Assembly (NCBI GenBank): GCA_023898465.1
Contig: CP060223.1
Span: 224,001 to 288,000 of the forward strand
DNA: 64,000 nucleotides
Direction: 5' to 3'
DNA from: Candidatus Nomurabacteria bacterium
GTDB taxonomy: Bacteria; Patescibacteriota; Patescibacteriia; HK-STAS-PATE-3
Shown here: one piece after another, positions 48,716 to 63,487 of the stretch
Layout: each line of letters opens with the position of its first letter
Position numbering within the stretch: the first letter of the stretch is position 1
Notes under the pieces: model-generated
The model's database searches: none
What the model saw: only the letters and a program-made list of their open reading frames with translations
What the model was told of the DNA's origin: nothing
Position numbers and translations under genes: made by a program

Positions 48716-48746
48716 CTTGCCCCTCCCCTTAAAAAGTGGTATAGTC
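48716..48746 (+). promoter_or_regulatory. putative promoter with extended -10 (TTGCCC-17-TGgTATAGT) for the sensor-module array operon
   Basis: Hexamers and spacing seen directly in the sequence. It is followed by an untranslated leader of about 190 nt before the first paralog. Confidence 0.4.
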
Positions 48747-48940
48747 ATTGAGCTATTCTGAATATCTCAATATTCTAGCAACCGCGTGAAAATGTCAGCA
48801 AAAACAGACATCGCGGAGGGGGAAATCACTCAAGAGCAGCACATACTCTTGTATACTCAAGCGTCCCTAGTAAAAAGGGATGTTTTTTGTGTGCAAAGTA
48901 GCCTCGTAGCTGCCACAAGTTCTGAAAGGAGCGAAGGCGC

Positions 48941-49600
48941 ATGTTAGGTTATCTTTTGCTCATTATATCGGTTGTAGAGTTTTTTATTGGCCTGTACCTT
49001 ATTTTTCGCTATGAAAAAAGCCAGGCAACAACATATTACGGTCTCTTTGCAATAAGTGTTGCGATCTATGTTGCCGCGAACGGTTTCGGATTTACCCGAG
49101 CTTCTGATAACGAGTTTATTTTTGAGCAACTTGCTTGGTTTGGCGGCTTACTTAGCGCCCCATTTATCCTTGGCTTCAGTTATAGCTTTCCTAGCCCTAA
49201 AAAATATCCCACTGAGCTATTTCCGTGGGTAATTTGGCCAGTAGTGTTATTTGGCGCAGGAATTTTTACTTCAAATATTTTCCTGGAGAAAACGTATATT
49301 TATTCCTTTGCCGAAGGCTACACTGCGCCAATCGGTGTCTTTTTCTGGTTCGCCATTGCAGTATTTGCGATGTATTGGATATGGGCAATACGAAACCTGC
49401 TGTATACGAGATTGCACACAAGCGGTTTTTATAGGAATTTTCTTACCATTGTGCTCATAGGGCTTTTTTCATCACTGCTTATTTCAGCAATTTTTGATAT
49501 TTACATTCCCTTAGTTTCAGTCACGCGCTACGGATATATTGGAGCATTATTCTCGTCTATTTGGCTGTTTACTACCGCGTATTTAATGGTGAGGAAGTAA
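48941..49600 (+). CDS. standalone 7TM membrane protein, paralog 1 (homologous to the HisKA_7TM-type N-terminal sensor module of the downstream histidine kinase)
   Basis: 219 aa, about 7 hydrophobic helices. Conserved blocks (N/R)xFLxIxLIGLxxSLL(I/V)S and GY(I/M)G(A/P)L(F/A)SSIWLF...YL(M/I)(V/L)RK are shared with the other paralogs and with HK residues about 190-230. Confidence 0.7.
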   Translation: MLGYLLLIISVVEFFIGLYLIFRYEKSQATTYYGLFAISVAIYVAANGFGFTRASDNEFIFEQLAWFGGLLSAPFILGFSYSFPSPKKYPTELFPWVIWPVVLFGAGIFTSNIFLEKTYIYSFAEGYTAPIGVFFWFAIAVFAMYWIWAIRNLLYTRLHTSGFYRNFLTIVLIGLFSSLLISAIFDIYIPLVSVTRYGYIGALFSSIWLFTTAYLMVRK

Positions 49601-49601
49601 G

Positions 49602-50261
49602 ATGATTGGATATATATTACTCATTATCTCAGTTGTTGAAGTAATACTCGGTTTTTATTTGATTTTTCGATATGTAAAAAGTCCAGCAACTATATATTAC
49701 GGCCTATTCGCGCTAAGTGTAGCACTCTATGTAGGTGCAAACGGGTATGGTTTTAGTCCGTTTTCAGAAAATGATATATGGCTGGAAATAATTGCCTGGA
49801 TTGGCGGGACCTTTACCGCTCCTTTTATTCTTGGCTTCAGTTACTCATTCCCTTATCCACGTAAGTCCAATAAGGAAATACTGTCTTTAGTTCTTAGTCC
49901 ACTCGTTTTTTTCTTCGTCGTAATACTTTTTTCTAATACTTTTGTAGATCATAATAGTGTTATCAGCTTTGATGAAGGATTTCAAAGACCTGTCGGGGAG
50001 TTACACTGGTTTGTATTATCAGTATTCTTTTTCTATTGGGTTTGGTCTTTTATTGAACTAGTAAAGAGTCGAAAAAAATCCGACGGCTTTAATAAGAATT
50101 TTCTTCTTATTTTAATTATAGGCTTAGTTTTTTCTTTGTTGGTTTCGGTATTTACTAACATCATTCATCCACTTGTCGATGTTTCAAAGTTAGGTTATAT
50201 GGGCCCCTTAGCCTCTTCAATCTGGCTATTTATTACTGGGTACTTGATATTGAGGAAGTAA
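49602..50261 (+). CDS. standalone 7TM sensor-module paralog 2
   Basis: 219 aa. Starts 1 nt after the paralog 1 stop, with an RBS aggaag. About 60% identical to paralog 1 by eye. Confidence 0.7.
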   Translation: MIGYILLIISVVEVILGFYLIFRYVKSPATIYYGLFALSVALYVGANGYGFSPFSENDIWLEIIAWIGGTFTAPFILGFSYSFPYPRKSNKEILSLVLSPLVFFFVVILFSNTFVDHNSVISFDEGFQRPVGELHWFVLSVFFFYWVWSFIELVKSRKKSDGFNKNFLLILIIGLVFSLLVSVFTNIIHPLVDVSKLGYMGPLASSIWLFITGYLILRK

Positions 50262-50932
50262 TGAACACCTTTCATTTAGTTTTACTTTTTACACTTTTCT
50301 TTATTCACGCGACTCTCGCAATATGGATGTTGCGTAGATATGTGCAGACGCTATCCATTCGTTATTACTCAGGCTTTTTATTTGGACTAGCACTTATTGC
50401 ACTATTAAATGGTTTATTGCTGTTATTTGGCGGTCAGGAGAGTCAAACAGTCCTTCATAAGATCGGCTTTATCTCAGGCACCTTCACTTTTGTGATGTTC
50501 TTTATGTTTAGTAAGTACTTTCCAATTTCTACTGCAAGACCAAACTCCCGCGACATTCTTTTTTGGGTAATTCCGATTACATTTTTTATTCCATTCATAC
50601 TTTTTAATCAGCAGTTTATCCAGTCTGTGATTATAGAAAATGGAATAAGTAAGCCTACATTTGGAGTCTGGTATACACCATTTATGTTAGTTTTGGCCAC
50701 CTTTGTTCTGGGGGCTATCTATAATCTCATACAGAAATATAAAATAACCACTGAACTTGAAATTAGGAAGAACATTAGAGACATTACGGCAGTATTTTTC
50801 GTATCAGGACTCCTTGGCTTTTTGTTGGACGTTGTGTTGCCAAGGTTTAATGTTTATACGGCACATTACTTTGCCATTGAATCTTCACTTTTTGTTGCGC
50901 TAACTACTGCAATTATTATTGCAAAGAAGTAA
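50261..50932 (+). CDS. standalone 7TM sensor-module paralog 3 (divergent)
   Basis: 223 aa. TAATG stop/start overlap with paralog 2. Confidence 0.65.
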   Translation: MNTFHLVLLFTLFFIHATLAIWMLRRYVQTLSIRYYSGFLFGLALIALLNGLLLLFGGQESQTVLHKIGFISGTFTFVMFFMFSKYFPISTARPNSRDILFWVIPITFFIPFILFNQQFIQSVIIENGISKPTFGVWYTPFMLVLATFVLGAIYNLIQKYKITTELEIRKNIRDITAVFFVSGLLGFLLDVVLPRFNVYTAHYFAIESSLFVALTTAIIIAKK

Positions 50933-50933
50933 G

Positions 50934-51605
50934 ATGAAAGAGTTTCTCATCATTGCAAATTATCTGGTTGGAATAGGGGAGTTGATGCTCGCTGGATATT
51001 TTTGGAAAACAAACAGCGGCAGCGCAATTCGGAAGGTGATGGTGTTGTTGGCGTTTTCGACTGGTATGTGGGTCATTTTTACCGGAACCTTTACCTACCG
51101 CTGGATTTTGCTTGATTACTTTGATCTCGGCATATCATTTGTATATTTCTTTGGAATTTTGTTCCTTACCGCCTTACTTCATTTAGTAATTCTCTTTCCT
51201 CACAAGATTTTCCCGTTTGATAGGCTACATACAGTTTTGTTGTATATTCCAACACTCATATTAGGTTTTGCCGCTTTTACTCCAGCGATAATTAAAGAAA
51301 ATATCACTCCGTCGAGCGGGTATACCACAAGTTATCCCGGACCAGCACATTGGATGTTTAATAGCTATCTTTTTCTCATGTATGCAATGGTGATAATCCT
51401 ACTCATTGTTAAGATCAAGCGTTTTGATGGATTTAGCAGAGATAACGCAAAAACTTTGCTTTGGGGTATTATTTTAGGCGGCCTACCCATCGTTTTCTTA
51501 GATTTGGTTTTGACAACTTTGGGCATCTACCCAAATGCTGCCGTTGCCAGCCTTTTCACAGTTGTCTGGCTTGGGTTTACTACTTACATAATTGTACGGA
51601 AATGA
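50934..51605 (+). CDS. standalone 7TM sensor-module paralog 4 (divergent)
   Basis: ATG 50934 lies 1 nt after the paralog 3 stop. The track ORF at 50919 uses an upstream TTG. C-terminus ...YIIVRK. Confidence 0.65.
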   Translation: MKEFLIIANYLVGIGELMLAGYFWKTNSGSAIRKVMVLLAFSTGMWVIFTGTFTYRWILLDYFDLGISFVYFFGILFLTALLHLVILFPHKIFPFDRLHTVLLYIPTLILGFAAFTPAIIKENITPSSGYTTSYPGPAHWMFNSYLFLMYAMVIILLIVKIKRFDGFSRDNAKTLLWGIILGGLPIVFLDLVLTTLGIYPNAAVASLFTVVWLGFTTYIIVRK

Positions 51606-52288
51606 ACGGAGAAATAGTATTTTTTGATTTAATTTTACTTAGCGTTGTTGGATTATTAGAATTAGCCTTTGGGATTTATTTAATAGTCCGTTATGTGAGG
51701 ACAAGTTCGATAGTATTTTTTGCACTTTTCGTTTTCTTTCTTTCTTTGTGGGTGCTTACAAATGCGGCTGCTTTCGTAATACCAATACATAATGTCTTCT
51801 TTGATATTGATTCAAAGTTGAGTTTTGTTTTTGCAATATTACTTTTTCCAGCGCTATACTTATATGTAATTAATTTTCCCATCCCTACAATATTAATAAA
51901 TTGGCGTTTAATACTTTTTGTGTTTACTGCGCCAATACTTCTTAGTACAATGATTTTAGGGTCGGGAACGGTTGTATTTGGATTTGATAAATTGATAGAG
52001 AATCAGCCAACTATATTTGGAGAAGCTTTTTGGGCCTATTCTTTTTATATGTTGTTCATGTATGCAATTATTTTATTTGAATTAATAAGGCAGATTAATA
52101 AGTCCAAGGGTTCTCACAGATGGTATGCACAAATTTTATTTTTTGCTGTTTTCATTTCTGGCGCAATAGGGCTATTATTTAATCTTGTTCTGCCTTCGAT
52201 GTTCGATATTAGAATTGCTTATTGGATAGCCCCATCTAGTTCAATTATTTGGCTTGCTCTTGTTTGGTGGGCGACGCAGAGGAAATAA
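51602..52288 (+). CDS. standalone 7TM sensor-module paralog 5
   Basis: ATGA start/stop overlap with paralog 4. Conserved YLIVRYVRTS and C-terminal ...WWATQRK. Confidence 0.65.
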   Translation: MNGEIVFFDLILLSVVGLLELAFGIYLIVRYVRTSSIVFFALFVFFLSLWVLTNAAAFVIPIHNVFFDIDSKLSFVFAILLFPALYLYVINFPIPTILINWRLILFVFTAPILLSTMILGSGTVVFGFDKLIENQPTIFGEAFWAYSFYMLFMYAIILFELIRQINKSKGSHRWYAQILFFAVFISGAIGLLFNLVLPSMFDIRIAYWIAPSSSIIWLALVWWATQRK

Positions 52289-52290
52289 TT

Positions 52291-52959
52291 ATGGATTATG
52301 GTGTATACTTATTATTAGTTATTGCGGGCCTAGAACTTTGGTTGACAATATACATATTTACTCGCTACCAAAGAACAAAAGCTATTTTTTTCTTTGGACT
52401 CTTTACTGCTTGTGTGACTGGATGGGTGCTAACTAATTCTATTCCGCTTCTTTTTTCCTATTCAAGTTGGCAATCTGATTTTTTGCAACGCCTCTCGTTT
52501 TCTTTTGCTGCATTTATTTTTCCTTTTCTTTATTATTATATTCTTTTACATCCATTTCCAAGCATTGATATCAACAAGCGATTCATATTATTCACATCCC
52601 TCCCGGCCTTCTTTGTTTCTATTGCCACTCTCTTTGATAAAAACTTTGTTATAGGATTCTATGATACCTCAGTAAGGGCAACAATATACGGCGACTCTTT
52701 TTGGATGTATGCGGTAGTTATGTTGCTATTTGCAATTCTTATTCCTGTGGAAATAATTTTAAAAAGAAGAAGACTGGATGGATATTATCGCTACCAATTC
52801 AAATTATTATTCAGCGCCTATTTGTTTTCAGCGGCAGTAGGATTACTAATTAATTTAATATTGCCATATTTTTTCGACTTAAAAATTAACTATTGGCTTG
52901 GGCCCGCGTCATCGATTATTTGGGTGAGTATGGTTTGGTGGGTTATTAATAGAAGGTAA
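52291..52959 (+). CDS. standalone 7TM sensor-module paralog 6
   Basis: Starts 2 nt after the paralog 5 stop. C-terminal WLGPASSIIWVSMVWWVINRR matches the HK GFGPLSTLFLLFFISYAIIRHR block. Confidence 0.65.
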   Translation: MDYGVYLLLVIAGLELWLTIYIFTRYQRTKAIFFFGLFTACVTGWVLTNSIPLLFSYSSWQSDFLQRLSFSFAAFIFPFLYYYILLHPFPSIDINKRFILFTSLPAFFVSIATLFDKNFVIGFYDTSVRATIYGDSFWMYAVVMLLFAILIPVEIILKRRRLDGYYRYQFKLLFSAYLFSAAVGLLINLILPYFFDLKINYWLGPASSIIWVSMVWWVINRR

Positions 52960-52981
52960 TGTTTAATTGCGATTTTCAAAA

Positions 52982-53641
52982 ATGACAATAGGACATGTAG
53001 TTGAAGAATTTAAAAGTCGGTATATTAAAAGACAACTAGATCATAATTTTATTGTTTTAGAGACTCAAAATAACAACCAACTAAATTTATCATATAGATT
53101 AAGATACGAAGTATATTGTCTAGAATGTAAATATTTAGACGTGAATAATTATCCCAATAGGTCTGAAAAGGATGAGTATGATGATTGTTCAATACATTTC
53201 ATCGCAATAAATAAAAAGACAAAAAATGTTGTTGGCACAATTCGACTTATTAAACGCACTAATAGGAATTTGCCAATAGAGCATGATTTTGGAATTTCTC
53301 TGAATGGATCAATTAGTTCTAAAAAAGTTGTGGAGATTTCTAGACTAGCGGTTGATAAAAAATTTAGGAAGTCGAGTTTAAAGCATCCAAGTATTATGTT
53401 AGGTTTATTAAAAGCATGCTATAGATACGCCGAAGAAAATGGAATTGCAATGTTTGTAGCGGCAATAGATCAAAATGTATATAATATGTTAAAAAAGTTT
53501 CGTTTTTCATTTAATTTATTAGGGGAACCAAAACATTATATGGGTTCAATCTCAGTACCCGTGTTAATTGATATCGAAAAAGAATCGCAGTGGTTAAAAA
53601 TAGTAAATCCTGGACTATGGACATTTCTTTCAAGCAATTAG
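52982..53641 (+). CDS. GNAT-fold N-acyltransferase resembling LuxI/FeeM-type autoinducer / N-acyl amino acid synthases
   Basis: LRYEVYCLECKYL...EKDEYDDCSIHFIAINKKTKNVVGTIRLI...LPIEHDFGISL...VVEISRLAVDKKFRK follows the R.EVF...E.D.YD...(Y/H)(L/F).A......G..RL.P......E..F...E.SR.AV pattern of the Autoind_synth/Acetyltransf_5 families. Confidence 0.5.
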   Translation: MTIGHVVEEFKSRYIKRQLDHNFIVLETQNNNQLNLSYRLRYEVYCLECKYLDVNNYPNRSEKDEYDDCSIHFIAINKKTKNVVGTIRLIKRTNRNLPIEHDFGISLNGSISSKKVVEISRLAVDKKFRKSSLKHPSIMLGLLKACYRYAEENGIAMFVAAIDQNVYNMLKKFRFSFNLLGEPKHYMGSISVPVLIDIEKESQWLKIVNPGLWTFLSSN

Positions 53642-54276
53642 CTCATAAAATTGTATTATTCTATTTAAGACGGGCTAGCCACAAAAAATACCTAACATTT
53701 AGCTTTAGCGATCTTATTATACTCTGTCCCCCAAACGTGTTCCCGCCTAATTCGTTTACCACTGACCTAATGGCTAAGTGGCTAGTAAACGAAGAGATGG
53801 AAGGTAAACAGGTTTTAGAGATGGGTTGTGGAAGTGGATACATTTCGATTATTGCCGCACGAAAAGGGGCAAAAGTAATTGCAAGCGACATCAGCCCTAT
53901 CGCGGTTGATGCCGCAAAAATCAATACCATAATAAATAAGATAAAAAATGTCGAATGTTATTGCTCGGACTTATTTTCTAACTTAGAAGGAAAGTTTGAT
54001 TTAATTCTCTTCAACGCACCTTTTTTTCATGGAGAACCCACTTCTTTATTAGATAACAATTGGATGAGTAAGGATGGGGAGGTGGTCAGTAAATTTTTTA
54101 AAGACGCAAGAGAATATATTAATCCAATGGGGAAGGTAGTTATTACTAGTTCGACTCTAGTTAATCAAGATGCTCTGAAAATATTAATTAAAGAAAGCGG
54201 ATTTAATATTGAAAACGTGAAAACAAAAAATATTATTATTGAAAAATTTTTCTTGTATGAATGTAGAGCTTTTTAA
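53617..54276 (+). CDS. class I SAM-dependent methyltransferase, small-domain (HemK/Mtq2-like)
   Basis: The VFPPNSFTTDL entry motif resembles the Mtq2/HemK N-terminal motif. GxGxG is VLEMGCGSGYISI, followed by an acidic loop ASDIS and DLILFNAPFF (NPP(Y/F)-like). The start overlaps the GNAT gene by 25 nt. Confidence 0.7.
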   Translation: MDISFKQLAHKIVLFYLRRASHKKYLTFSFSDLIILCPPNVFPPNSFTTDLMAKWLVNEEMEGKQVLEMGCGSGYISIIAARKGAKVIASDISPIAVDAAKINTIINKIKNVECYCSDLFSNLEGKFDLILFNAPFFHGEPTSLLDNNWMSKDGEVVSKFFKDAREYINPMGKVVITSSTLVNQDALKILIKESGFNIENVKTKNIIIEKFFLYECRAF

Positions 54277-55021
54277 TAGAAATCAACCATTTATAACTAA
54301 AAAAGAACAAAAAATTCTCACAAAACAGAAAGTTTGTTTTATTGGATGTGGTCTTGCAAGTCAAGCCGCACTCCTTATTGCCAGGACAGGTATTGGAAAA
54401 ATAGTACTTTGTGATGGAGACAAGGTCGAGTTGAGTAATCTTAACAGGCAAGCATTTGACATTGGTGATATTGGAGAAAACAAAGCAGAAAGCTTAATGA
54501 GAAAGATATTAAGCATCAATTCAAATATTGAAGTGGAGCAGTATCCGGTTTTTTTAAAAAAATCGATTATTTCAAATGTAATAAAAGATTCAGATATTGT
54601 AGTGAGCACAGTTGATGCGGGTCCTTTATATTTTGAAATTCAGGAATATATTAATAAAAAAGGCATTATGGGAATATTCCCCATGAATATTGCCTTTGGA
54701 TCACTCGTATTCGTATCAAAAAATGGAAAGGGTGATTTTAAATCGTTATTTGGGGAGAAATTACCTGAAAATAATTCTGAATTTTTTTATCAACTTTACA
54801 ATAAACTTAAACAAAATGTACCAAGCTATTTATCTCCTCATATTGAAATCTTATTAAGTGGATTTAAAACAAACAGTCCAATTCCACAGCTAGGATTAAC
54901 GACTTTACTTACCGCATCTTTGATTACTGAGATAATACTGGCTGGGAACAGGGCTGAGCAATTATTGTTAACTCCAAGATTCTATTATTTTGATATTCGT
55001 GAATTCGTTCGAAATGGATAA
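54257..55021 (+). CDS. ThiF/MoeB/E1-like adenylyltransferase
   Basis: Rossmann VCFIGCGLASQ followed by DGDKVELSNLNRQ, the ThiF signature. The core is 254 aa with no rhodanese or peptide-clamp extension. Confidence 0.75.
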   Translation: MNVELFNRNQPFITKKEQKILTKQKVCFIGCGLASQAALLIARTGIGKIVLCDGDKVELSNLNRQAFDIGDIGENKAESLMRKILSINSNIEVEQYPVFLKKSIISNVIKDSDIVVSTVDAGPLYFEIQEYINKKGIMGIFPMNIAFGSLVFVSKNGKGDFKSLFGEKLPENNSEFFYQLYNKLKQNVPSYLSPHIEILLSGFKTNSPIPQLGLTTLLTASLITEIILAGNRAEQLLLTPRFYYFDIREFVRNG

Positions 55022-57785
55022 ATTGCTAATCCCACAAAATTTAGCACTTATTATATTGCTCTTCGGATATTTAAGTCTGATAATTCTTCTTTTGAGACGC
55101 GAGAACACAAGTAGTAGATTATTTGGTGCTACCGTTATTACTCTCTCTCTTTGGATATTATCAATTTTACTTTTAAATATCAGCTCCTCAAAAGAAGAAA
55201 TTTTATTCTTTTCGCGATCGTCATTTATCGGGCCAATTATTCTCATACCAACATTCCTTCTTTTTTCTTGGTATTTTCCGAAAAAAACTATACATCTAAG
55301 GAAAAGTATTATTATTGTCGTTTCTTTAACGGCATGCTTCTTTTTAATTGCGACGTTTACGCCGTATGTAATTCAAGATGTCACAATAAAAGTAGGTGAA
55401 GGAGTCAGTCTAACCTATCAACTTGGAACACTATATTTTTTCCAATTTATTTTTTTAGCATTCTCATTACTTTATTCTTTTTTTATTCTTTATAAAAAAT
55501 ATAAAAAATCAAAAGGCCTAGAAAAATTACAAATTAGATATCTTTTTCTTGGCACCGTTATTACTGCAGTATTGACCTTGAGTACTAACGTAATTTTACC
55601 AATTTTTAATTTTTCATCTCTTGCTGGATTTGGCCCTCTTAGTACTCTATTTCTCTTATTTTTTATTTCATATGCCATCATCCGCCACCGCCTCCTCGAC
55701 ATCCGTCTTGTTATCACGCGTTCCTTAATTTATTTTTTCCTTATCCTGTTCGTCGCAGGATCATTTACTGGAATTACCTTACTCGCAAAGTTATTATTTG
55801 AAGAATTTGTTGGTGAAATAACCGCTACAATACTTGTTTCTCTCATCATCGTTATTGGTTTCGAGCCATTGAAGCGATGGGTCTCTCGTTCTACTGACTC
55901 GGTTTTTTATAAGGCAAAAATTGACTACGCTGATGTGTTGCGGGAAATCAGCGAAATTATTAACCGTGAAATTGTCCTGGATCCGCTCGTCACCTCCATC
56001 AGCGCCACGCTTGAGAGTAGGCTCAAGCTCAAGCACGCGGGCATTGCATTGAAAAGCGCCAAGGGGGATTTTGTTGAATACATAAACCACGATCACTTTG
56101 ATCCCAAAACCTTTTCCAGCCGATCCGGTATGATCGGATTCTTACGTTTCACATCTCGTATCACCATTTTAGAATCGCTCGAGCGCAAAATTCAGGACAC
56201 GAGCGAAGGGGACGAATTAAAAGAGTTGAAGCGATCGCGCGAGGAAATGGAAACGAACCACATTGCCTTAGCTGCTCCGATTGTGGCGCAAGGCAAATTC
56301 AACGCAGTCCTCATCCTGGGGCCGAAACTTTCCGGTGATAGCTTCTCGACCGAAGAGTTGAAGATGATTGAAACGTTGACTCCGCAGATCGGATCAGCGA
56401 TTGAGAAATCCATGCTCTTCGAAGAGGTGAAGAACTTCTCCAGTCAATTAAAGGTGAAAGTTGATGAGGCGACAAAGGAGTTGAAAGAGCGCAATCGTTT
56501 CCTTGGCGCTTTGCAGGATATCACGAGCACCATTACGCACTCTCTTGATTACAAAAAAGTAGGACAGGACATTGTGGACGGAGTAGCCAAGAAGCTCGGT
56601 TACATCGGTGCCGTGCTCCTGCTCTATGATCCAAAGACTGGCCAGTCATGGGCTGAGGCAATTACGCAAACGCCGGTTACTCGCGCGGCAATGAAATTAC
56701 TGCCCAAGCCGGTGAACGAATACCATGGGCACGTGGATGAGAATTCCATGACCGACCAAGTTATTTTGACTGGTGAAATGCGCGAAAGTGATTCACTAGC
56801 TGAATTCTTAGCACCGGCCGTGCCTAAAGCTTTTTGTTTCGCCATGCAGAAGTTGATTCGCGCAAAGTATATTGTGGCAGTGCCAATCTATGCCGAGGGT
56901 GAAATTCTCGGTGCCTTGGTTTTTGTGCTCGGGAAGAAGAAAGAGGAGATCAGTAGTCAGGAGCGGGCTATGATGATCGCTTTAGGTGACCAGGCCGGAA
57001 TCGTGCTGCACAATATTAAACTCTTTGATCGCATCCAGGATACGAATAAGCAGTTGGAGCAGGCGAATGAACACTTGAAGCAGCTTGATCAAGCTAAGTC
57101 GGAATTCGTCTCCATTGCCTCGCACCAATTACGCACGCCGATGACTGGCATTATGGGCTATCTTTCCATGATGGTGCAGGGGGATTTCGGTAAAATGGAG
57201 CCGGAGCACACCAAACTGCTGACTGAATTGTTGAGTGAGAGTCAGCGCATGATTCGTCTCATCAACCTCTTCTTGAACGTCTCAAAGATTGAGTCAGGTA
57301 AGATGACGATTAACAAGCAGCCGACGCAGATTAAGGATCTCATTGACCAACAGATTAAGGATCAGAAAAAGCCAGCCGAGGATAAAGGATTGGTGCTGAA
57401 AGTGGAAGTTGATAAAGAGCTGCCGATAATTGAAGCTGACGGTGATAAGCTCATGAACGTGGTGCAGAACCTGATTGATAACGCTATCAAATATACAGAG
57501 CGGGGAAGCGTGACTGTTCGCGCCTTTCAGACCGATGGCCATATCCAGGTAGAAATTCAAGACACTGGCGTTGGTATTAAGCGCGAAGATGTGCATGAAC
57601 TCTTTGGTAAGTTTGTGCGCGGGTCTGGCATTGCGCAGATCAATCCTGATGGCTCCGGTCTCGGACTCTTTATTGCCAAGTCAATTGTGGAAATGCACGG
57701 CGGTAAGATTTGGGTAGAATCAGAAGGTGAAGGGAAAGGTACTAAATTCGCATTCACGATACCAATTACACAGCCGAAAAAATGA
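54990..57785 (+). CDS. sensor histidine kinase: N-terminal 7TM (HisKA_7TM-like) sensor, GAF domains, HisKA, HATPase_c
   Basis: N-terminal about 230 aa are hydrophobic and homologous to the six upstream paralogs. H-box SIASHQLRTPMTGIMGY. N/G1/G2 boxes NLIDNAIKYT, DTGVGI and GSGLGL. ATG 55014 would give an ATGGATAA start/stop overlap with the E1-like gene. Confidence 0.85.
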   Translation: MIFVNSFEMDKLLIPQNLALIILLFGYLSLIILLLRRENTSSRLFGATVITLSLWILSILLLNISSSKEEILFFSRSSFIGPIILIPTFLLFSWYFPKKTIHLRKSIIIVVSLTACFFLIATFTPYVIQDVTIKVGEGVSLTYQLGTLYFFQFIFLAFSLLYSFFILYKKYKKSKGLEKLQIRYLFLGTVITAVLTLSTNVILPIFNFSSLAGFGPLSTLFLLFFISYAIIRHRLLDIRLVITRSLIYFFLILFVAGSFTGITLLAKLLFEEFVGEITATILVSLIIVIGFEPLKRWVSRSTDSVFYKAKIDYADVLREISEIINREIVLDPLVTSISATLESRLKLKHAGIALKSAKGDFVEYINHDHFDPKTFSSRSGMIGFLRFTSRITILESLERKIQDTSEGDELKELKRSREEMETNHIALAAPIVAQGKFNAVLILGPKLSGDSFSTEELKMIETLTPQIGSAIEKSMLFEEVKNFSSQLKVKVDEATKELKERNRFLGALQDITSTITHSLDYKKVGQDIVDGVAKKLGYIGAVLLLYDPKTGQSWAEAITQTPVTRAAMKLLPKPVNEYHGHVDENSMTDQVILTGEMRESDSLAEFLAPAVPKAFCFAMQKLIRAKYIVAVPIYAEGEILGALVFVLGKKKEEISSQERAMMIALGDQAGIVLHNIKLFDRIQDTNKQLEQANEHLKQLDQAKSEFVSIASHQLRTPMTGIMGYLSMMVQGDFGKMEPEHTKLLTELLSESQRMIRLINLFLNVSKIESGKMTINKQPTQIKDLIDQQIKDQKKPAEDKGLVLKVEVDKELPIIEADGDKLMNVVQNLIDNAIKYTERGSVTVRAFQTDGHIQVEIQDTGVGIKREDVHELFGKFVRGSGIAQINPDGSGLGLFIAKSIVEMHGGKIWVESEGEGKGTKFAFTIPITQPKK

Positions 57786-58216
57786 AACAGGTAAGGGGGA
57801 AACAACCAAAACGCATCCTACTTGTCGAGGACGAGCCGCTCTTAGCAACGATGTATATGTTGGCGTTGCAGCAACGAGTAAAGGCTGAGGTGTACGGGGC
57901 TAAGACACGCGAAGAAGCGGAGCGCATTATTGAGCGTGTGAAGCCGGATTTAGTGCTGCTTGATCTCATGATTCCCTCGATTACCATCCAAGACACGGAG
58001 CAGGATTTTCATCATCCAGTAGGGCTGCAATTCTTAGCCCAAATTCGGAAGAGTCCAAAGACGCGTTCAATCAAGGTAATGATTCTCTCCAACCTTGATG
58101 CGGATGAGCAACGCAAGCGGGCCATTGATTTAGGTGCCGAGGATTACCTATTAAAAGCCAGTCTGCAGCCGCACGCGATTGTGGAAAAGGTAAAGCATAG
58201 TTTAGGGATAAAATAA
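57782..58216 (+). CDS. single-domain response regulator (receiver only)
   Basis: RILLVEDEPLL...DLVLLDLMIP...K receiver motifs. ATGA overlap with the HK stop. No output domain. Confidence 0.85.
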   Translation: MKQVRGKQPKRILLVEDEPLLATMYMLALQQRVKAEVYGAKTREEAERIIERVKPDLVLLDLMIPSITIQDTEQDFHHPVGLQFLAQIRKSPKTRSIKVMILSNLDADEQRKRAIDLGAEDYLLKASLQPHAIVEKVKHSLGIK

Positions 58217-58333
58217 GCCAGTCAATAATCTCATCCTTGACAGAGCCGGTGGTTTTTGTATACTTTCTGGCCCTGTTCTTTCCCATCGCGAATATCGGCA
58301 ACGGCCTCATTCTTAACATGTTTGGGAGGCCGT

Positions 58334-58531
58334 ATGTCGATTGCGTTTACTCCCACTGAGCTTATTCTCCTCGGAGGATTTCTCGTCTGGATCATGGCCC
58401 AAATCTATGCTCCAATGAAAGGTCGCCGCAAAGCTGTCAGCTTCGGCGCCATCGAGATTGTCTTCCTGCTCGTGGGTCTCGCGGTATTGCTCCTCGGAGC
58501 AATCACCCTTGCACAGAATCCTGCCTTCTAG
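58334..58531 (+). CDS. putative small two-TM membrane protein
   Basis: A 65-aa ORF from ATG 58334 with two hydrophobic helices. A TTGACA-16-TATACT promoter lies at about 58231-58262 and a terminator overlaps the 3' end. Confidence 0.3.
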   Translation: MSIAFTPTELILLGGFLVWIMAQIYAPMKGRRKAVSFGAIEIVFLLVGLAVLLLGAITLAQNPAF

Positions 58532-58548
58532 GCGGGATTCTTTTTTTA
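58510..58548 (+). terminator. intrinsic terminator (gaatcctgcc...ggcgggattc + TTTTTTT)
   Basis: GC-rich inverted repeat followed by a 7-T run. Confidence 0.5.
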
Positions 58549-58568
58549 AAAGATGCTAGAGTATAGCT

Positions 58569-59003
58569 ATGAAAAATATTTTTCCAAAAGGGGTCGAGGT
58601 AGTAGCGGGGGTAATAATATTCCATAAAGGGAAGATTCTGATTGCACGCTCACCGAAGTGGTCAGATAAATGGACATTGCCGGGCGGCCATATTGATCCC
58701 GGAGAAACAATTGCAGAGGCGGCTATGCGAGAAGCGGAAGAAGAGACGGGCTTAAAGGTTCATCCACTTGGTTTTGTGAAAGCAGGTGAACTTATTTATT
58801 CAAAGGATTTTCACCGGCCTGCGCATTTTCTCTATTTTGATTATGCTGTTGAAGCAGATGATGGTAATGCAACACTTGATAAGCGCGAATTAACGGAAAT
58901 GCAATGGTGTTCTCCAAAAGAAGCGCTCCAGATGGACTTAGCAGAAAGTTTTTCTGAATCAATCCAAGCTTTTTTAGAAAAGTTTCCGCAATACGCCGGG
59001 TAG
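58569..59003 (+). CDS. NUDIX hydrolase
   Basis: Nudix box GGHIDPGETIAEAAMREAEEETGL (GX5EX7REUXEEXGU). Confidence 0.85.
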   Translation: MKNIFPKGVEVVAGVIIFHKGKILIARSPKWSDKWTLPGGHIDPGETIAEAAMREAEEETGLKVHPLGFVKAGELIYSKDFHRPAHFLYFDYAVEADDGNATLDKRELTEMQWCSPKEALQMDLAESFSESIQAFLEKFPQYAG

Positions 59004-59045
59004 TGCTGCTTTTCTGAAGCGCGAAAAAATGGTATAGTAGGGCGC

Positions 59046-61721
59046 ATGACAGGGGGGCAAACCTGGCACAAATACAGCACAAAAGACACAATACAAAAAC
59101 TGCGGGGGAGCCGACAGGGTCTTCGTTCTAAGCAAGCGCAGCAACGGCTCAAGCAGTACGGACCAAATGTGTTACCCGCGGCAGCTGGACGTACCGCGCT
59201 GCAAATTTGGGGTAGGCAATTTGCCAGTCCATTGATGTTGTTATTGATCGCGGCAGCTGGAGTGAGCTTTGCCCTGCGCGATACCATCGATGCACAAGTA
59301 ATTCTCGCCGCAGTTGTTTTAAATGTGGTGGTAGGATTTATCCAGGAGTATCGAGCCGAACGTACTTTGGAATCTTTGCGCAAGGTGGTTACTTTTGATG
59401 CGCTGGTGTTGCGCGATGGAGTAGAGCGGAGCGTGGCGGCGCAGGATATTGTGCCCGGTGATGTTTTGGTAGTGCGGGCCGGGATGCGAGTGGTGGCTGA
59501 TGCGCGTCTTCTCGAAGTAAATGATTTGCAGGTAAATGAAGCAAGTCTCACCGGTGAAAGCACGCCAGTAGAGAAAATACATAGTGCCCTCGACGGACAT
59601 TTGGGTTTAGGCGACCAGCACAACATGCTTTTTAACGGAACAACGGTTATTGCCGGTTCAGGTCAGGCAATAGTCGTAGCGACCGGCACCTCGACCGAGT
59701 TCGGTCAAATTGCTCAAACCGTGCAGAATGTAAAAGAGGATGCGACACCCTGGCAGCAGCGTTTGCAACGATTTAGCCGTTTTATTACCCTGGTCGTCCT
59801 GGGCGTTGCGGCAGCAATTTTCATATTAGGTGCTTTTACTGGCCGTTCCTTGCCTGAAATGTTTGCTGTGTCGGTAGCCATCGCTGTTGCCGCAATTCCG
59901 GAGGGTTTGGCTATTGGGGTAACTGTGGTGCTGGTGATTGGCATGCGACGTATTTTGCAGCAGCAAGCGCTGACTCGACAGCTGGTCGCCGTGGAAACGC
60001 TCGGTGCAATCAGTGTGCTGTGCTTTGATAAGACAGGCACGGTGACTGAAGGCAACATGGCTGTAGTGCGCGTGGTAACCGAAAACCATGATCTGCACGC
60101 CTCCTCCGACGAGCTGCACGCGCATAGTAAAGATGTGGCTTCAACCAAGAGCACTGTCCGACTTTTCAAAATCGCTCTGCTCTGCAATGACGCGCATATT
60201 GAAAATGAAGATAAAGCGCTGGAGCATCGCCTGGTCACGGGTAATCCCACTGAGCGCGCGCTCGTAAATGCAGCCCACGCTCTAGGATTGACTCGACATG
60301 CCCTCGAATCTGACGCGCCTCGAGTCGCCAGCATACCCTTTAGCTCAAATCGTAAATTCATGCTAACCGTGCATCATGATGCGCAAGGCGATGTGGCCTA
60401 TGCAAAAGGCGCGCCAGAGGTAATTTTACAGGCCACGCATGCTATAGATTTGGATGGGAAGGAAGTAAAGATACACAATGATCGTCGTCGTGAGCTTCTC
60501 CAACGCGCTGAGACTTTGAGTCGCGAAGGCCTCCGCGTCCTCGCTTTTGCCTATGCACGCTTGCCTGATCATAAGAATGACGAGCCAAGTGCGCTGCCGC
60601 AACTCACCTTTGTCGGATTTGCCGGCTTAAAAGATCCACTCCGCGCTGAGGCAAAAACAGCTGTGCAGGCGCTCCAACACGCTGGCATTCACGCTGCCAT
60701 GATTACCGGTGATCACAAATTTACTGCTCAGGCAATTGCGAAAGAGTTAGGCTTACCCATTGCGGCAAAACACATCCTAACTGGCCAGGACCTAGAGCGA
60801 CTCAGCGATGCGGACCTGCAAAAGAAAATTCGCGGCATCCATGTGTACGCTCGCGTGTCGGCAAAAGACAAGATACGCATTGTAAAAGCCTGGAAAGCCT
60901 TAGGCGAGGTGGTGGCTATGACCGGCGATGGTATCAACGACGCCGCAGCCTTGAAAGCAGCTGACGTTGGCATTGGTTTAGGGTCAGGTACTGAGGTAGC
61001 CAAAGAAGCTGCTAAGGTAATTCTGCTCAACGATAATATTCAAACGATTGAGTCAGCAGTGGAGCAGGGGAGGATAATTTTTGAAAATATTAAAAAGGTG
61101 ACGCTGTATTTACTTTCCGATGCCTTTTCCGCAGTTATTTTAGTCGCACTCAGTTTACTTGGCGGTTTACCACTGGCGCTTTCAGCTGCGCAGATACTCT
61201 GGATAAACCTTGTTACCGACGGCCTGCCAAACATGGCCCTGACTATTGAGCCAAAGGAGCGTAATGTGATGGCAGAAAAACCGCGTCCACGCAGCGAGCC
61301 ACTGCTTGATCAGACCGGTAAAATCTTTGTCGCCAGTATCAGTGCAGTTACGGGCGTGTTGTCTTTCATACTCTTCTTCATTGTGTTGCGGGAAAGTGGC
61401 AATGAAATTCTGGCTCGCTCGGTTGCCTATGCCGCCTTAGGCACTACGACTTTGCTATACGCCTTTAGCCTGCGTCATATCCGACAAGGCTTATTTAGTG
61501 GTAATCCATTTCAGAATCGTTGGCTCAATCTCGCGGTCGGTGTTGGACTCATTCTCCAAATCGGCGTGTTGTATTGGGCTCCTTTGCAGCATTTCCTTGG
61601 CACAACTGCGATTGACTGGACGCATTGGAAGTTAATTTTTGTTATGAATATCACGGTCTTGCTCTTTATTGAAGCGTTGAAGCTTTTTGTCCACAGTGGA
61701 AAGAAAAAGGCAGCTGCGTAG
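59046..61721 (+). CDS. cation-transporting P-type ATPase (type IIA-like, Ca2+/Mg2+ family)
   Basis: Phosphorylation motif CFDKTGTVT, TM4 PEGL, ITGDHKFTA and hinge MTGDGINDAAALKAADVGIGLG. Length 891 aa. Confidence 0.9.
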   Translation: MTGGQTWHKYSTKDTIQKLRGSRQGLRSKQAQQRLKQYGPNVLPAAAGRTALQIWGRQFASPLMLLLIAAAGVSFALRDTIDAQVILAAVVLNVVVGFIQEYRAERTLESLRKVVTFDALVLRDGVERSVAAQDIVPGDVLVVRAGMRVVADARLLEVNDLQVNEASLTGESTPVEKIHSALDGHLGLGDQHNMLFNGTTVIAGSGQAIVVATGTSTEFGQIAQTVQNVKEDATPWQQRLQRFSRFITLVVLGVAAAIFILGAFTGRSLPEMFAVSVAIAVAAIPEGLAIGVTVVLVIGMRRILQQQALTRQLVAVETLGAISVLCFDKTGTVTEGNMAVVRVVTENHDLHASSDELHAHSKDVASTKSTVRLFKIALLCNDAHIENEDKALEHRLVTGNPTERALVNAAHALGLTRHALESDAPRVASIPFSSNRKFMLTVHHDAQGDVAYAKGAPEVILQATHAIDLDGKEVKIHNDRRRELLQRAETLSREGLRVLAFAYARLPDHKNDEPSALPQLTFVGFAGLKDPLRAEAKTAVQALQHAGIHAAMITGDHKFTAQAIAKELGLPIAAKHILTGQDLERLSDADLQKKIRGIHVYARVSAKDKIRIVKAWKALGEVVAMTGDGINDAAALKAADVGIGLGSGTEVAKEAAKVILLNDNIQTIESAVEQGRIIFENIKKVTLYLLSDAFSAVILVALSLLGGLPLALSAAQILWINLVTDGLPNMALTIEPKERNVMAEKPRPRSEPLLDQTGKIFVASISAVTGVLSFILFFIVLRESGNEILARSVAYAALGTTTLLYAFSLRHIRQGLFSGNPFQNRWLNLAVGVGLILQIGVLYWAPLQHFLGTTAIDWTHWKLIFVMNITVLLFIEALKLFVHSGKKKAAA

Positions 61722-61784
61722 TCATTAGGGTAAAGTTGACGTTTCGCTTCAGAATAAGTACAATTTTAAGGTATTTACTGAACT

Positions 61785-63077: not shown

Positions 63078-63487
63078 ACAAACAATGGATCATCTCCATC
63101 GTGAGTATTGCAGTTCTTTCTTTTGCTGCTGGCGTTTTCTTACTTGCTCGCGAGCAAAATAACTCTATCGATGCAGAAGTGCGCGGAGCAACCGATACGC
63201 GCGGTGTGTACAGTGTCTTAGTGCAAGCACATAGCCAAACAAGCGCTGATTTAAGCGGAATTCAGATTGAGGCGAGTCAATTAGGGACTGTGCAAGGTGA
63301 AAATCCTTTTTCTCAAATCTTAGCGATTGATACACAAAACGAGATTGTTTTTTCTCTTCCTGAAGGCAAATATTTACTGCATCCGGTGGATCAGGAATCC
63401 TATGCCGGTAGCACAGTTGTCGAGTTAAAGGGAAATACTACGGTTGATTTACGACTTGTTATGAAAACCCAAGAGGAAGCGCAATGA
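63074..63487 (+). CDS. hypothetical membrane-anchored protein
   Basis: ATG 63074 ([25 protein letters not shown]) has an ATGA overlap with the asnS stop and ends 4 nt into aspS. 137 aa. Confidence 0.4.

Follow-up and report, generated by a model that had tools for sequence, protein, structure and literature searches.

[quoted passage not shown] A survey of the CPR (Bernard et al. 2020, PMC7567580), in the sections consulted, reported 51 CqsA-homologue/kinase and 18 LuxI-homologue/kinase adjacencies and proposed complete quorum-sensing systems in these bacteria; the adjacencies are probably the same as, or overlapping with, the loci described here. Those sections made no mention of allelic replacement, intragenic breakpoints, a composition boundary, synthase/sensor co-variation or arrays of kinase-less 7TM paralogs, and a term search of the paper returned neither polymorphism nor a 7TM module.

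The locus lies in a stretch of 64,000 nucleotides from Candidatus Nomurabacteria bacterium (the window), in which an initial annotation had noted a base-composition boundary inside a histidine kinase gene. Our analysis indicated that this boundary is likely to be the right-hand edge of an exchangeable cassette, a pherotype-like signal-synthase/receptor unit within a conserved Patescibacteria two-component locus. The features of the locus are as follows:

48717-48745, promoter-like site
48859..48885, + strand, terminator-like hairpin 5' of the paralog array, possibly marking the start of the operon (consensus scan only)
48941..49600, + strand, standalone 7TM paralog s1, 219 aa, kinase-less HisKA_7TM copy (Pfam PF16927, 34.6 bits, over the 28.6 cut-off), collinear with kinase residues 1-225 and ending at the junction; orthologues in L084, L085 and L086 (42% identity); GC3 0.37-0.40
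49602..50261, + strand, standalone 7TM paralog s2, 219 aa (alignment with the kinase sensor), 53% identity to s1; GC3 0.29-0.31
50261..50932, + strand, standalone 7TM paralog s3, 223 aa (alignment with the kinase sensor), best match L085_s1 (35%); GC3 0.33-0.36
50985..51605, + strand, standalone 7TM paralog s4, 206 aa from ATG (gene call in L001; ORF open from TTG 50919), weak PF16927 match (E 1.3e-4); orthologues L087_s1 and L086_s2 (38-41%)
51602..52288, + strand, standalone 7TM paralog s5, 228 aa (alignment with the kinase sensor); orthologues L085_s4 and L084_s3 (38-42%); GC3 0.23-0.28
52291..52959, + strand, standalone 7TM paralog s6, 222 aa (alignment with the kinase sensor), final gene before the presumed left cassette edge; identical copy on contigs from other samples
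52967..53641, + strand, GNAT-fold acyltransferase of the LuxI/FeeM kind (N-acyl amino acid synthase-like; TIGR03694, Pfam), first gene of the cassette; GC3 0.19-0.22
53617..54276, + strand, SAM-dependent methyltransferase of the cassette (MTS/HemK-like small domain; Pfam PF05175, 70.9 bits; NCBIfam TIGR00537, 108.8 bits, cut-off 87); GC3 0.30-0.33
54257..55021, + strand, ThiF/E1-like adenylyltransferase of the cassette (Pfam PF00899, 102 bits), overlapping the kinase start; GC3 0.22-0.24
54990/55014-57785, + strand, whole histidine kinase gene
55014..55676, + strand, kinase 7TM sensor module (HisKA_7TM, Pfam PF16927, 59.2 bits; kinase residues 20-238), right-hand part of the cassette
55677..55712, + strand, junction motif I-I-R-H-R-L-L-D-I-R-L-V, where the composition changepoint falls and where the recombination breakpoints of relatives lie
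55713..55856, + strand, kinase transitional zone (eighth helix and linker) of intermediate GC3 (0.40), containing the second changepoint optimum at 55842
55857..57785, + strand, kinase core of GAF, GAF, HisKA and HATPase_c domains (Pfam), the conserved 'chassis'; GC3 0.55
57782..58216, + strand, single-domain response regulator (receiver-domain matches), overlapping the kinase stop; GC3 0.53-0.54
58515..58541, + strand, terminator-like hairpin (12-bp stem and T run) 3' of the response regulator, possible operon end (consensus scan only)

Between about 49 kb and about 55.7 kb the G+C content was 0.27-0.40, rising to 0.47-0.50 downstream, in comparison to approximately 0.47 for the whole window, and within the kinase gene GC3 rose from 0.22-0.24 over the 7TM sensor (codons 1-228) to 0.55-0.56 after it. 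As initially annotated, the AT-rich stretch comprised six 7TM paralogs of about 220 aa, the GNAT, methyltransferase and ThiF/E1-like genes and the 5' 684 nt or so of the kinase gene, but its start, placed near 48.9 kb, is too far downstream, as AT-richness was already evident from about 47.5 kb. The return to core-genome G+C past the junction was borne out in overall content, with the qualification that kinase core GC3 was slightly above the core level (0.55 versus 0.45 expected, z +5.1). Changepoint analysis of GC3 placed the switch at 55674, one codon ahead of the junction motif (LLR 35.9 versus 8.1, the maximum of 300 permutations), with a 2-lnL support interval of 55665-55974 and near-equal optima at 55674 and 55842. 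All ten codons from 228 to 237 (55674-55703, A-I-I-R-H-R-L-L-D-I) end in G or C, GC3 then drops back to about 0.40 for some 46 codons, and the core level is attained near 55.85-55.9 kb. The switch had been described as abrupt and completed within a few codons; the step is real, but it is joined to a gradient of about 200 codons into the kinase core.

Expected GC3 was obtained by recoding the same amino acids with the window's core codon usage. In this amino-acid-controlled comparison the 7TM sensor had a GC3 of 0.22 against 0.44 expected (z -6.9), and the deficit was shared by the GNAT (0.19, z -7.6), ThiF (0.22, z -6.9) and methyltransferase (0.30, z -3.9) genes, while SecY, two other membrane proteins and a P-type ATPase of the window were as expected. 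The deficit thus lies at synonymous sites and is unexplained by amino-acid composition, and the earlier argument that hydrophobic-codon bias is insufficient holds, since the soluble GNAT and ThiF genes are equally low or lower. The strongest GC3 deviation in the window was the block 52967-55676, with the six standalone paralogs only moderately low (0.28-0.43). Some conserved neighbouring genes are AT-rich, as are the standalone paralogs, and low G+C alone is therefore no marker of exchanged DNA.

The kinase belongs to a family of more than 60 full-length homologues with a common 7TM, GAF, GAF, HisKA and HATPase architecture. In other Patescibacteria, 21 of 21 distinct full-length family genes showed the same GC3 jump, from a mean of 0.25 in the sensor (0.16-0.34) to 0.57 in the core (0.36-0.74), with low GC3 extending 60 codons beyond the junction motif in loci L085-L087. 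These data demonstrated that the cassettes are always AT-rich at synonymous sites, regardless of host G+C. Family loci typically consist of 3-6 kinase-less 7TM paralogs, variable small-molecule enzymes, the kinase and often a receiver-only response regulator, which directly follows the kinase in L084-L087 as it does here. Enzymes in other alleles include alpha-oxoamine synthases of the BioF/Kbl/CqsA family, a PaaK-like ligase or other GNATs; the methyltransferase model, built from the window sequence only, found no match in the remaining 20 distinct loci of the family that were examined. Around the locus, genes for M23 peptidases, CHAP proteins and lipoproteins are abundant.

Sensor identity was about 25% in nearly all pairs, independent of core identity. 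The extreme pair, P0036/P0052, had 98% core and 17% sensor identity, followed by P0022/P0033 (90/29), P0031/P0050 (87/23) and P0025/P0026 (86/24). Mantel correlations between the 7TM and other kinase regions were 0.06-0.10 and not significant, as opposed to 0.58-0.83 among the core regions, with the linker partly coupled to the core (0.58-0.62 versus about 0.8 between core regions); it is important to note that near-saturated sensor distances (mean 0.75, SD 0.05) weaken distance correlations by themselves. The two halves of the kinase therefore have incongruent histories among homologues of the same domain architecture, the module pairing itself being conserved. The window's kinase core is 46-65% identical to family members with its regions mutually congruent, and GAF2 (about 56510-56990) showed a separate affinity. 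Its 7TM sensor reached at most 39% identity to any of 1.84 billion cluster representatives.

Three sister-genome pairs (L082/L083, L086/L087 and L088/L089) located the breakpoints. Flanks and kinase core shared 79-99% nucleotide identity, and in all three pairs nucleotide similarity was undetectable across the enzymes and 7TM segment, being regained at -2, +11 and -5 codons, respectively, from the first residue of IIRHRLLDIR. On the left, similarity in L082/L083 and L086/L087 ended at the stop codon of the final standalone paralog that is conserved, or no more than 36 nt past it; this edge was not cleanly resolved in the more diverged L088/L089. The standalone paralogs were kept at flank-like identity in two of the three pairs. 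Gene content of the segment differed as well: GNAT and ThiF versus a PaaK-like ligase and a 351-aa ThiF in one pair, a methyltransferase and GNAT versus two unrelated ORFs in another, and GNAT/ThiF versus an oxoamine synthase in another. The enzymes and the kinase 7TM module are thus replaced jointly, in a segment that starts where the last standalone 7TM gene ends and extends to the conserved IIRHRLLDIR junction, while the kinase core and flanks are vertically inherited. The corresponding unit in the window comprises the enzyme genes together with the 7TM sensor, at about 52960-55676. All other contigs of the window's own species were 100% identical, with no sister genome carrying an alternative cassette, so that replacement in this particular genome is one we infer by homology and do not observe.

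Comparison of sequence identities showed that enzyme similarity follows sensor similarity and not core similarity. GNAT identity correlated with 7TM identity (r 0.66, p 2e-4) and not with the core (r 0.19); for ThiF the values were 0.93, inflated by one near-identical pair, and 0.35. The cassettes of L088 and L104 are 63-65% identical with cores at 46%, and L094/L104, a control pair with the same cassette, had 97% sensor and 96% core identity. The window's own cassette is likewise incongruent with its kinase core on sequence similarity: the core is nearest to L084 (64%), while the nearest relatives of its GNAT and ThiF are in loci with distant cores, the GNAT being nearest to that of L137 (44%, 189 bits; 81 bits to L084), whose core is among the most distant (45%).

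These results retain the enzymes and sensor from the initially proposed recombination of a sensor module and upstream block onto a resident kinase, and place the six paralogs outside the exchanged unit. Modular sensor swapping was likewise upheld as a process recurrent across the Patescibacteria kinase family, though not as a one-off event: it is allele or cassette replacement within one conserved architecture and not the creation of a new one. Imported DNA may enter by ordinary homologous recombination, for which the conserved kinase core would serve as the right-hand anchor and the conserved paralog array as the left-hand one. Selection would retain only recombinants that have a matched enzyme/sensor pair, which would account for the clustering of breakpoints at the domain junction. 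Such exchange would involve no DNA-level site, repeat or recombinase. AT-richness may reflect circulation in a low-G+C horizontal pool or escape from GC-biased gene conversion, as non-homologous alleles cannot recombine; the latter would also explain the GC3 gradient into the core.

We infer a quorum-sensing function for the locus, in which the enzymes would produce a lipid-like or amino-acid-derived signal and the co-inherited GPCR-like 7TM bundle would sense it, so that each type of cassette would constitute a private 'dialect' (pherotype) of signalling, comparable to those of agrBDC and comQXP. In the window the putative signal enzymes would be the LuxI/FeeM-like N-acyl amino acid synthase, the methyltransferase and the ThiF-like adenylating enzyme, of which a role for the latter two in signal synthesis is guesswork. 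The classical pherotype model does not provide for 7TM paralogs that lack a kinase.

It is possible, though less likely, that cassette exchange is real but that the system has a role other than quorum sensing. The enzymes might synthesize or alter a membrane lipid, a surface molecule or an antimicrobial, with the 7TM kinase monitoring the product or the envelope state (self-surveillance or immunity regulation), or the product could act on the bacterial host of these episymbionts. All the enzymes come from generic families that conjugate acyl groups or amino acids, and none reaches an equivalog cut-off for an autoinducer synthase, the response regulator lacks a DNA-binding output, the fold match of the predicted sensor model to lipid-sensing GPCRs would fit membrane-lipid sensing equally, and the nearby peptidase, CHAP and lipoprotein genes are consistent with such a role. 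However, joint replacement and co-variation of producer and sensor are a hallmark of signal/receptor specificity pairs, and a LuxI-like GNAT and a CqsA-family oxoamine synthase, both from families with autoinducer synthases among their known members, alternate at the same position beside the sensor. Rapid divergence in place, with vertical inheritance under diversifying selection or local AT-biased hypermutation and no horizontal replacement, is improbable: it would account for the uniform sensor identity of about 25%, a GC3 uniformly near 0.25 in all lineages and the absence of any relative of the window's sensor above 39% identity, but sister genomes with 95-99% identical flanks hold different genes in the segment, which largely refutes it. 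Cassettes are moreover sometimes closer than cores (L088/L104), the sensor is conserved as much as the core where the cassette is the same (L094/L104), and neither a reverse transcriptase nor a template repeat was seen.

The six tandem paralogs directly upstream, collinear with the kinase sensor and stopping exactly at the junction, could suggest a silent sensor store (pilS/pilE-like or shufflon-like) from which copies would be transferred into the kinase through gene conversion or through site-specific recombination. This is highly improbable, as no fused sensor exceeds 34% identity to a standalone paralog, the best matches of fused sensors (34-41%) being other fused sensors, and no nucleotide similarity was found to the paralogs in the same genome or in sister genomes. 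Each paralog has a start and a stop codon of its own, the paralogs show translational-coupling overlaps, orthologous subfamilies and the flank-like conservation described above, and neither a junction-like DNA repeat nor a recombinase was found within the window. A G+C drop without recombination, due to hydrophobic amino acids or codon choice tuned for membrane-protein translation, would agree with the abundance of F, I, L, Y and K in the 7TM part and with a small membrane-part GC3 deficit in unrelated HisKA_7TM kinases (median difference 0.09). The amino-acid-controlled test ruled out this reading, with soluble genes as low as the sensor and SecY normal, and the sister pairs have breakpoints. 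The chance of an assembly chimera of two organisms fused at the junction is practically negligible, even though the junction motif is near-invariant across the family and the source is a metagenome-assembled genome. An independent Logan assembly of SRR12358676 was 100% identical over 46841-64000, including the join, as were short contigs from four other assemblies wherever they overlapped the window; the source contig spans 1.08 Mb, neither the reading frame nor the domain is disrupted, and the same pattern occurs at 21 loci in unrelated assemblies. The motif showed no excess synonymous conservation, and the lack of conservation in its DNA sequence makes it ill suited to mis-joining. Misassembly of the window is thus unlikely.

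With joint exchange of enzymes and sensor as the preferred reading, the locus can be set against known systems. Its sensor resembles bacterial 7TM receptor modules (Pfam HisKA_7TM, with weak 7TMR-DISM_7TM matches), and the AF2 model predicted a GPCR-like 7-helix bundle, comparable to eukaryotic GPCR transmembrane domains; sequence identity in this comparison, which uses a predicted model built from a 7-sequence alignment, was 6-14%. The sensor acts on a histidine kinase and not on a G protein, and the paralogs have no output domain at all. The window's GNAT passes curated cut-offs for PEP-CTERM/exosortase-associated acyltransferases (NCBIfam TIGR03694, 139.6 bits, cut-off 111.95) and, in Pfam, for FeeM-type N-acyl amino acid synthases, Acetyltransf_5 and, like LuxI-type synthases, Autoind_synth, while the sensor and GAF part of the kinase had no match to PrsK (TIGR02916), and no exosortase or PEP-CTERM genes came to notice at the locus or elsewhere in the window. 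The same GNAT scored 44 bits against AHL-synthase equivalog models, far under their 250-bit cut-off, and the classical LuxI partner is a cytoplasmic LuxR and not a kinase. As in the alpha-hydroxyketone systems CqsA/CqsS and LqsA/LqsS, a putative small-molecule autoinducer synthase gene adjoins a multi-pass membrane sensor kinase, and the L085 and L089 alleles encode alpha-oxoamine synthases of the CqsA superfamily (PDB 2wk8/3hqt, E about 5e-30), but these score higher to Kbl, BioF and serine palmitoyltransferase and reach 195-207 bits in comparison to the 428-bit CqsA-type equivalog cut-off.

Staphylococcal agr shares a variable block that terminates within the kinase gene. Its signal, however, is a cyclic thiolactone peptide (AgrD processed by AgrB) whose genes are absent here, AgrC is a kinase of another class (HPK10), and agr has four alleles per species as opposed to near-saturated sensor divergence across a whole superphylum. 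In comparison to comQXPA, where the signal is a ribosomal peptide with isoprenyl transferase modification, no ComQ or ComX homologues were found, and the locus instead encodes a GNAT, ThiF, methyltransferase, oxoamine synthase or ligase. Its sensor, a GPCR-like HisKA_7TM bundle, precedes two GAF domains, its alleles vary in gene content as well as in sequence, and it has an additional series of 7TM paralogs that lack a kinase. The two systems are nonetheless alike in having signal-production genes, here putative, directly upstream of a multi-pass membrane histidine kinase, in the variability of these genes and of the kinase sensor part, with breakpoints here at the sensor/transmitter junction, and in producer/sensor co-variation, and by analogy the Patescibacteria locus may have a pherotype function.

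Domain analysis placed the kinase among the HisKA_7TM sensor kinases, with its N-terminus (residues 20–238) scoring 59.2 bits against the PF16927 gathering cut-off of 28.6, followed downstream by two GAF regions, HisKA and HATPase_c in Pfam searches. The genes relevant to this analysis were as follows:

48941-52959, six standalone 7TM paralogs (s1–s6) upstream of the kinase, membrane proteins of ~220 aa that are collinear with its 7TM module and end exactly at the module end
52967-53641, same orientation as the kinase, GNAT
53617-54276, same orientation as the kinase, methyltransferase (MTS/HemK-like)
54257-55021, same orientation as the kinase, ThiF
54990-57785, kinase ORF with ATG start at 55014, 923 aa on record, NCBI H6760_01335 of a Candidatus Nomurabacteria MAG, on a 1.08-Mb contig

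In gene content the window matches a Patescibacteria genome. The recorded kinase is the ATG-55014 product, and the 931-aa TTG-start product had no exact database match. The three enzyme genes overlap one another and the kinase start, and the receiver gene (response regulator), in the same orientation, overlaps the kinase stop. Genes from 48941 to 58216 are closely spaced and have terminator-like hairpins on both sides (consensus matches only), and this packing and bracketing fit a predicted single operon.

Base composition within this region showed that G+C, ~0.47 in the window, fell to 0.27–0.40 from ~49 kb to 55.7 kb and returned to 0.47–0.50 inside ORF 54990-57785. Third-position G+C (GC3) of the kinase was 0.24 in codons 1–228 and 0.55–0.56 in later codons, and the likelihood-ratio statistic of this changepoint was 35.9 compared to a permutation maximum of 8.1 (300 permutations), confirming the intragenic boundary reported by the initial annotation. 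When GC3 was predicted from the actual amino acids with codon usage taken from 17 core genes, 0.44 was expected for every segment; observed values were 0.22 for the 7TM module (z -6.9), 0.19 for GNAT (z -7.6), 0.22 for ThiF (z -6.9) and 0.30 for the methyltransferase (z -3.9), while SecY, a P-type ATPase and two other membrane proteins matched expectation. The drop is therefore not explained by hydrophobic amino acid content. The initial description held except for the sharpness of the boundary and the extent of the block: codons 228–237 (55674–55703) have G or C at every third position, but the next ~46 codons have a GC3 of ~0.40, and the changepoint support interval runs from 55665 to 55974 with optima at 55674 and 55842. 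The six standalone paralogs were only moderately depressed (GC3 0.28–0.43). Misassembly of this join is unlikely; a Logan assembly was 100% identical to the window over 17 kb, and overlapping short contigs from four other assemblies were also identical.

Comparison of three pairs of sister loci demonstrated that, while the kinase core is inherited vertically, its sensor module and the enzyme genes are exchanged together, up to a right breakpoint at the domain junction. The syntenic loci L082 and L083 share flanks of 95–99% nucleotide identity (96.7% upstream, 97–100% downstream) around different cassettes, with no detectable nucleotide similarity between L082 7818-10654 and L083 7293-10639. 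In one genome this segment comprised a partial 7TM ORF, GNAT, ThiF and the kinase sensor, and in the other a PaaK-like ligase, a 351-aa ThiF and the kinase sensor. Similarity returned (94.6%) two codons ahead of the junction motif IIRHRLLDIR at the sensor/core border, and the right edge lay 11 codons past the motif start in L086/L087 (methyltransferase and GNAT versus two unrelated ORFs) and five codons before it in L088/L089 (a GNAT and ThiF set versus an alpha-oxoamine synthase). The last standalone 7TM gene borders the left edge in L082/L083 and L086/L087, which fell 0–36 nt past its stop codon, and this gene and the other paralogs retained flank-like identity in both pairs; in the more diverged L088/L089 the left edge was not cleanly resolved. 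For L082/L083 and L086/L087 the exchanged segment measured 1.8–3.3 kb, and its window counterpart is about 52960–55676. In the window the motif starts at 55677, one codon past the left-hand changepoint optimum, so that the shift in composition falls where the relatives have their recombination boundary. The proposal that the sensor and upstream block were recombined onto a resident kinase is supported in a refined form, in which the unit comprises the enzymes and sensor without the paralogs and exchange recurs instead of being a one-time event.

Within the window's own species, exact-match searches with the response regulator and paralog s6 recovered only identical short contigs and no alternative cassette. 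One 1064-nt contig covering the s5/s6 region (L175) was 100% identical except for nucleotides 1–82, which do not match the window and could be a contig-end artefact or an s5 strain variant.

Across the family, more than 60 full-length homologs had the same kinase architecture (42–57% identity, 95–99% coverage), so the pairing of 7TM and core modules is itself conserved. Sensor sequence was uncoupled from core sequence, as in an alignment of 38 homologs the window 7TM module was 21–33% identical to every homolog and the rest of the protein 46–65%. Over all pairs, sensor identity was ~25% regardless of core identity, with extreme core/sensor values of 98/17%, 90/29%, 87/23% and 86/24%. Mantel correlations of 7TM distances with linker, GAF1, GAF2 or kinase distances were 0.06–0.10 and not significant, in comparison to 0.58–0.83 (p 0.0005) among the latter four. 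Searched exhaustively with HMMER, 1.84 billion cluster representatives gave no match above 39% identity to the window sensor. The best-scoring relatives of this sensor (P0121–P0127, P0130, P0143) are ~1080–1090 aa long with two matched stretches, the top one at residues ~270–480, which suggests that they may be kinases with duplicated sensor modules.

The kinase core itself appeared mosaic at one domain. The window protein grouped with homologs P0002–P0004 in GAF1 (61–64% identity) and in the kinase domain (80–83%), while in GAF2 (56510–56990, residues ~500–660) it grouped with P0007, P0008 and P0016 (56–58%) and was only 40–44% identical to P0002–P0004, which are 66% identical among themselves there. 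This pattern suggests a possible separate replacement of GAF2, a second mosaic inside the kinase that carries no composition signal.

Profile searches of upstream regions showed that the stretch separating the paralog array from the kinase holds a mosaic of enzyme genes, encoding LuxI/FeeM-like GNAT, ThiF, methyltransferases of two kinds, a PaaK-like adenylate-forming ligase, an alpha-oxoamine synthase of the BioF/Kbl/CqsA superfamily, a second GNAT type and a small membrane protein. Enzyme identity tracked sensor identity and not core identity: GNAT correlated with the sensor at r 0.66 (p 2e-4) and with the core at 0.19 (n=11 loci), and ThiF at 0.93 and 0.35, respectively (n=10 loci). For example, ThiF and sensor were 63–65% identical between L088 and L104, whose cores were 46% identical. 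The window core was closest to L084 (64%) and L085 (62%), neither of which has the closest GNAT or ThiF; the closest GNAT was in L137 (189 bits versus 81 bits for L084) and the closest ThiF genes were in L101 and L082. Rapid mutation of the sensor would be an alternative source of such divergence, but L094 and L104, which share one cassette, had sensors 97% and cores 96% identical, which counts against hypermutation.

The window GNAT scored 139.6 bits against TIGR03694 (cut-off 111.95) and also passed Pfam FeeM, and both models scored higher than LuxI-type models; it reached 47.3 bits against Autoind_synth PF00765 (cut-off 24) and 40–44 bits against NCBIfam TraI-type AHL-synthase equivalogs (cut-offs 250–292). 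The oxoamine synthases found in L085 and L089, and not in the window, scored 195–207 bits against the CqsA/LqsA equivalog NF005526 (cut-off 428); Kbl, BioF and serine palmitoyltransferase models scored better, none above its own cut-off, and PDB searches gave E values of about 5e-30 for CqsA and 1e-77 for Kbl.

The composition step was a family feature. Independent assemblies supplied 21 distinct full-length genes of the family, with GC3 of 0.16–0.34 (mean 0.25) in the sensor and 0.36–0.74 (mean 0.57) in the core, and the jump was present in 21/21. Adjoining enzyme genes had GC3 of 0.14–0.37, nearly all at or below 0.30, and paralogs were intermediate. The median sensor/core difference was only 0.09 in unrelated HisKA_7TM kinases; these controls were taken from a full-length-alignment contig scan with H-box patterns and were mostly unrelated Saccharibacteria kinases, with L002 the only family member. 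Family-average GC3 was flat at ~0.25 in the sensor, stepped to ~0.35 at the motif and rose gradually to ~0.6 over ~200 codons. Together with the L082/L083 kinase core, which is 88–97% identical compared to 97–100% for downstream genes, and a linker only partly coupled to the remaining core, this gradient suggests either variable recombination endpoints or reduced recombination beside the heterologous block. Other AT-rich genes in the window (44039-45255, 11937-12569 and 47669-48682; GC3 0.26–0.36) encode secreted or membrane proteins, and as comparable neighbours are 96.7% conserved between L082 and L083, low G+C alone is no marker of recent exchange here.

The cassette would be replaced through homologous recombination, with the conserved flanks as anchors, and selection would keep matched producer/sensor pairs. 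Several other routes were weighed against this. Silent donors of the pilE/pilS kind would draw new sensors from the standalone paralogs, but kinase-fused and standalone sensors share no nucleotide tracts, their protein identity is at most 34%, and the paralogs form orthologous subfamilies across genomes, with no fused sensor having one of them as its closest relative. The junction as a recombination site at the DNA level was rejected, as synonymous-site identity is no higher there and the motif is conserved in protein only; the window junction 39-mer was absent from every other locus. Carriage by a phage or virus was likewise rejected: junction alignment found no IMG/VR relative and blastn no match to phage records. 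Searches of the window for island markers found neither flanking direct repeats nor an integrase, and tRNAs only at 12.6 and 41.5 kb.

Additional features of the locus were recorded. The sequence TGGCGAAACAAAAAGCTTTA at 48343-48362, in a 337-aa ORF upstream of the array of paralogs, and its reverse complement at 56825-56844, in the GAF2 region of the kinase, form a perfect 20-nt inverted repeat with arms 8.5 kb apart; a naive estimate puts the chance expectation at about 6e-5 for the 11.5-kb region, and inversion would disrupt both genes. An IS200/IS605-type Y1 transposase ORF is present in the paralog array of L082 (full-length, 6450-6947) and L083 (truncated, 5256-5540) and is found in neither the window nor other loci. 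A ~480-aa protein opens the array in L082 (4950-6410), L084 (5016-6464), L101, L102, L105 and L137; in L082, Pfam identified a 7TM module and a weak GAF-like region with no kinase domain, as in a truncated kinase-like receptor, while the others were matched by 7TM model and size only, and the window has no such gene. Genes 43291-44028 and 46794-47492 share an identical 33-residue N-terminus, MTWRFRLFLLMAIALTMTPLAFMTGCQELPTEG (lipoprotein-type signal), and then diverge; in L082 and L083 the kinase locus is likewise flanked by genes with a duplicated leader, one copy being a Peptidase_M23 (Pfam). A gene run at 82-6034 encodes prepilin-type N-terminal motifs (e.g. GFTLIELLVV) of type IV pilus or competence-like pilins, possibly relevant only as a DNA-uptake route for cassette exchange.

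A putative quorum-sensing or pherotype function is plausible for this locus, in which the enzymes, judged by family membership only, would produce an acylated or amino-acid-derived signal detected by the co-inherited sensor. Assignment of the kinase to PrsK of PEP-CTERM systems was rejected, as its sensor and GAF part had no PrsK match, and no exosortase was found among the locus genes that would link the GNAT to exosortase/PEP-CTERM. Family searches of the called cassette genes found neither an AgrD/ComX precursor nor an AgrB/ComQ enzyme, and the genes are too tightly packed for an annotated small ORF. In a broader interpretation, offered tentatively and with the balance somewhat against it as a whole, one conserved kinase chassis in CPR bacteria would accept plug-and-play cassettes, each pairing a GPCR-like 7TM sensor with its own chemistry for small molecules (N-acyl amino acid synthase, alpha-oxoamine synthase, acyl ligase or ThiF-dependent modification), and private chemical dialects would then be available to these ultra-small symbionts in very large numbers. 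The kinase-less 7TM paralogs might then serve as extra decoy or eavesdropping receptors tuning the kinase, and AT-richness with the GC3 gradient might reflect recombination that is suppressed around a balanced polymorphism of great age. The step-plus-gradient shape is a test case for base-composition theory, as it bears on the question of whether local base composition is shaped by suppressed recombination and the resulting absence of GC-biased gene conversion.

If the functional reading is true, Patescibacteria would have a pherotype system like those of Firmicutes, extending social discrimination to CPR bacteria that are tiny, largely uncultured and host-dependent, with pherotypes operating through small molecules and a GPCR-like sensor at a cassette diversity near sequence saturation. 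Defined synthase/sensor pairs that can be heterologously expressed provide a testable hypothesis for CPR communication, and the IIRHRLLDIR junction behind the seventh helix offers receptor engineering a naturally validated exchange boundary. For genome scanning, an intragenic synonymous-site G+C step can pinpoint a domain-level recombination boundary. CqsA- and LuxI-like genes adjoining sensor kinases in CPR genomes were already described in passages of an earlier report (PMC7567580); a term search of that report returned no mention of polymorphism or the 7TM module, and these passages do not mention cassette replacement, an intragenic boundary, producer/sensor co-variation or paralog arrays. 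Full-text literature searches on HisKA_7TM and on CPR with hypervariable two-component loci yielded no description of such a system.

Identities, Mantel tests and the breakpoints of three pairs showed a variable block made up of the putative production genes and the kinase's sensor part, the transmitter part being conserved. This corresponds to comQXP, where comQ, comX and the 5' end of comP vary (PMC6334282), and to the agr hypervariable region, which lies within agrB, agrD and agrC (PMC10482373). Classical pherotype loci (agr, comQXP) use peptide precursors, whereas the cassettes described here use small-molecule enzymes, and their alleles differ in gene content and probably also in chemistry. 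The comQXP variable region is reportedly low in G+C too. In comparison to these classical loci, the present family has a GPCR-like 7TM-GAF-GAF kinase accompanied by conserved kinase-less 7TM paralogs, and its sensor divergence is near saturation over the superphylum.
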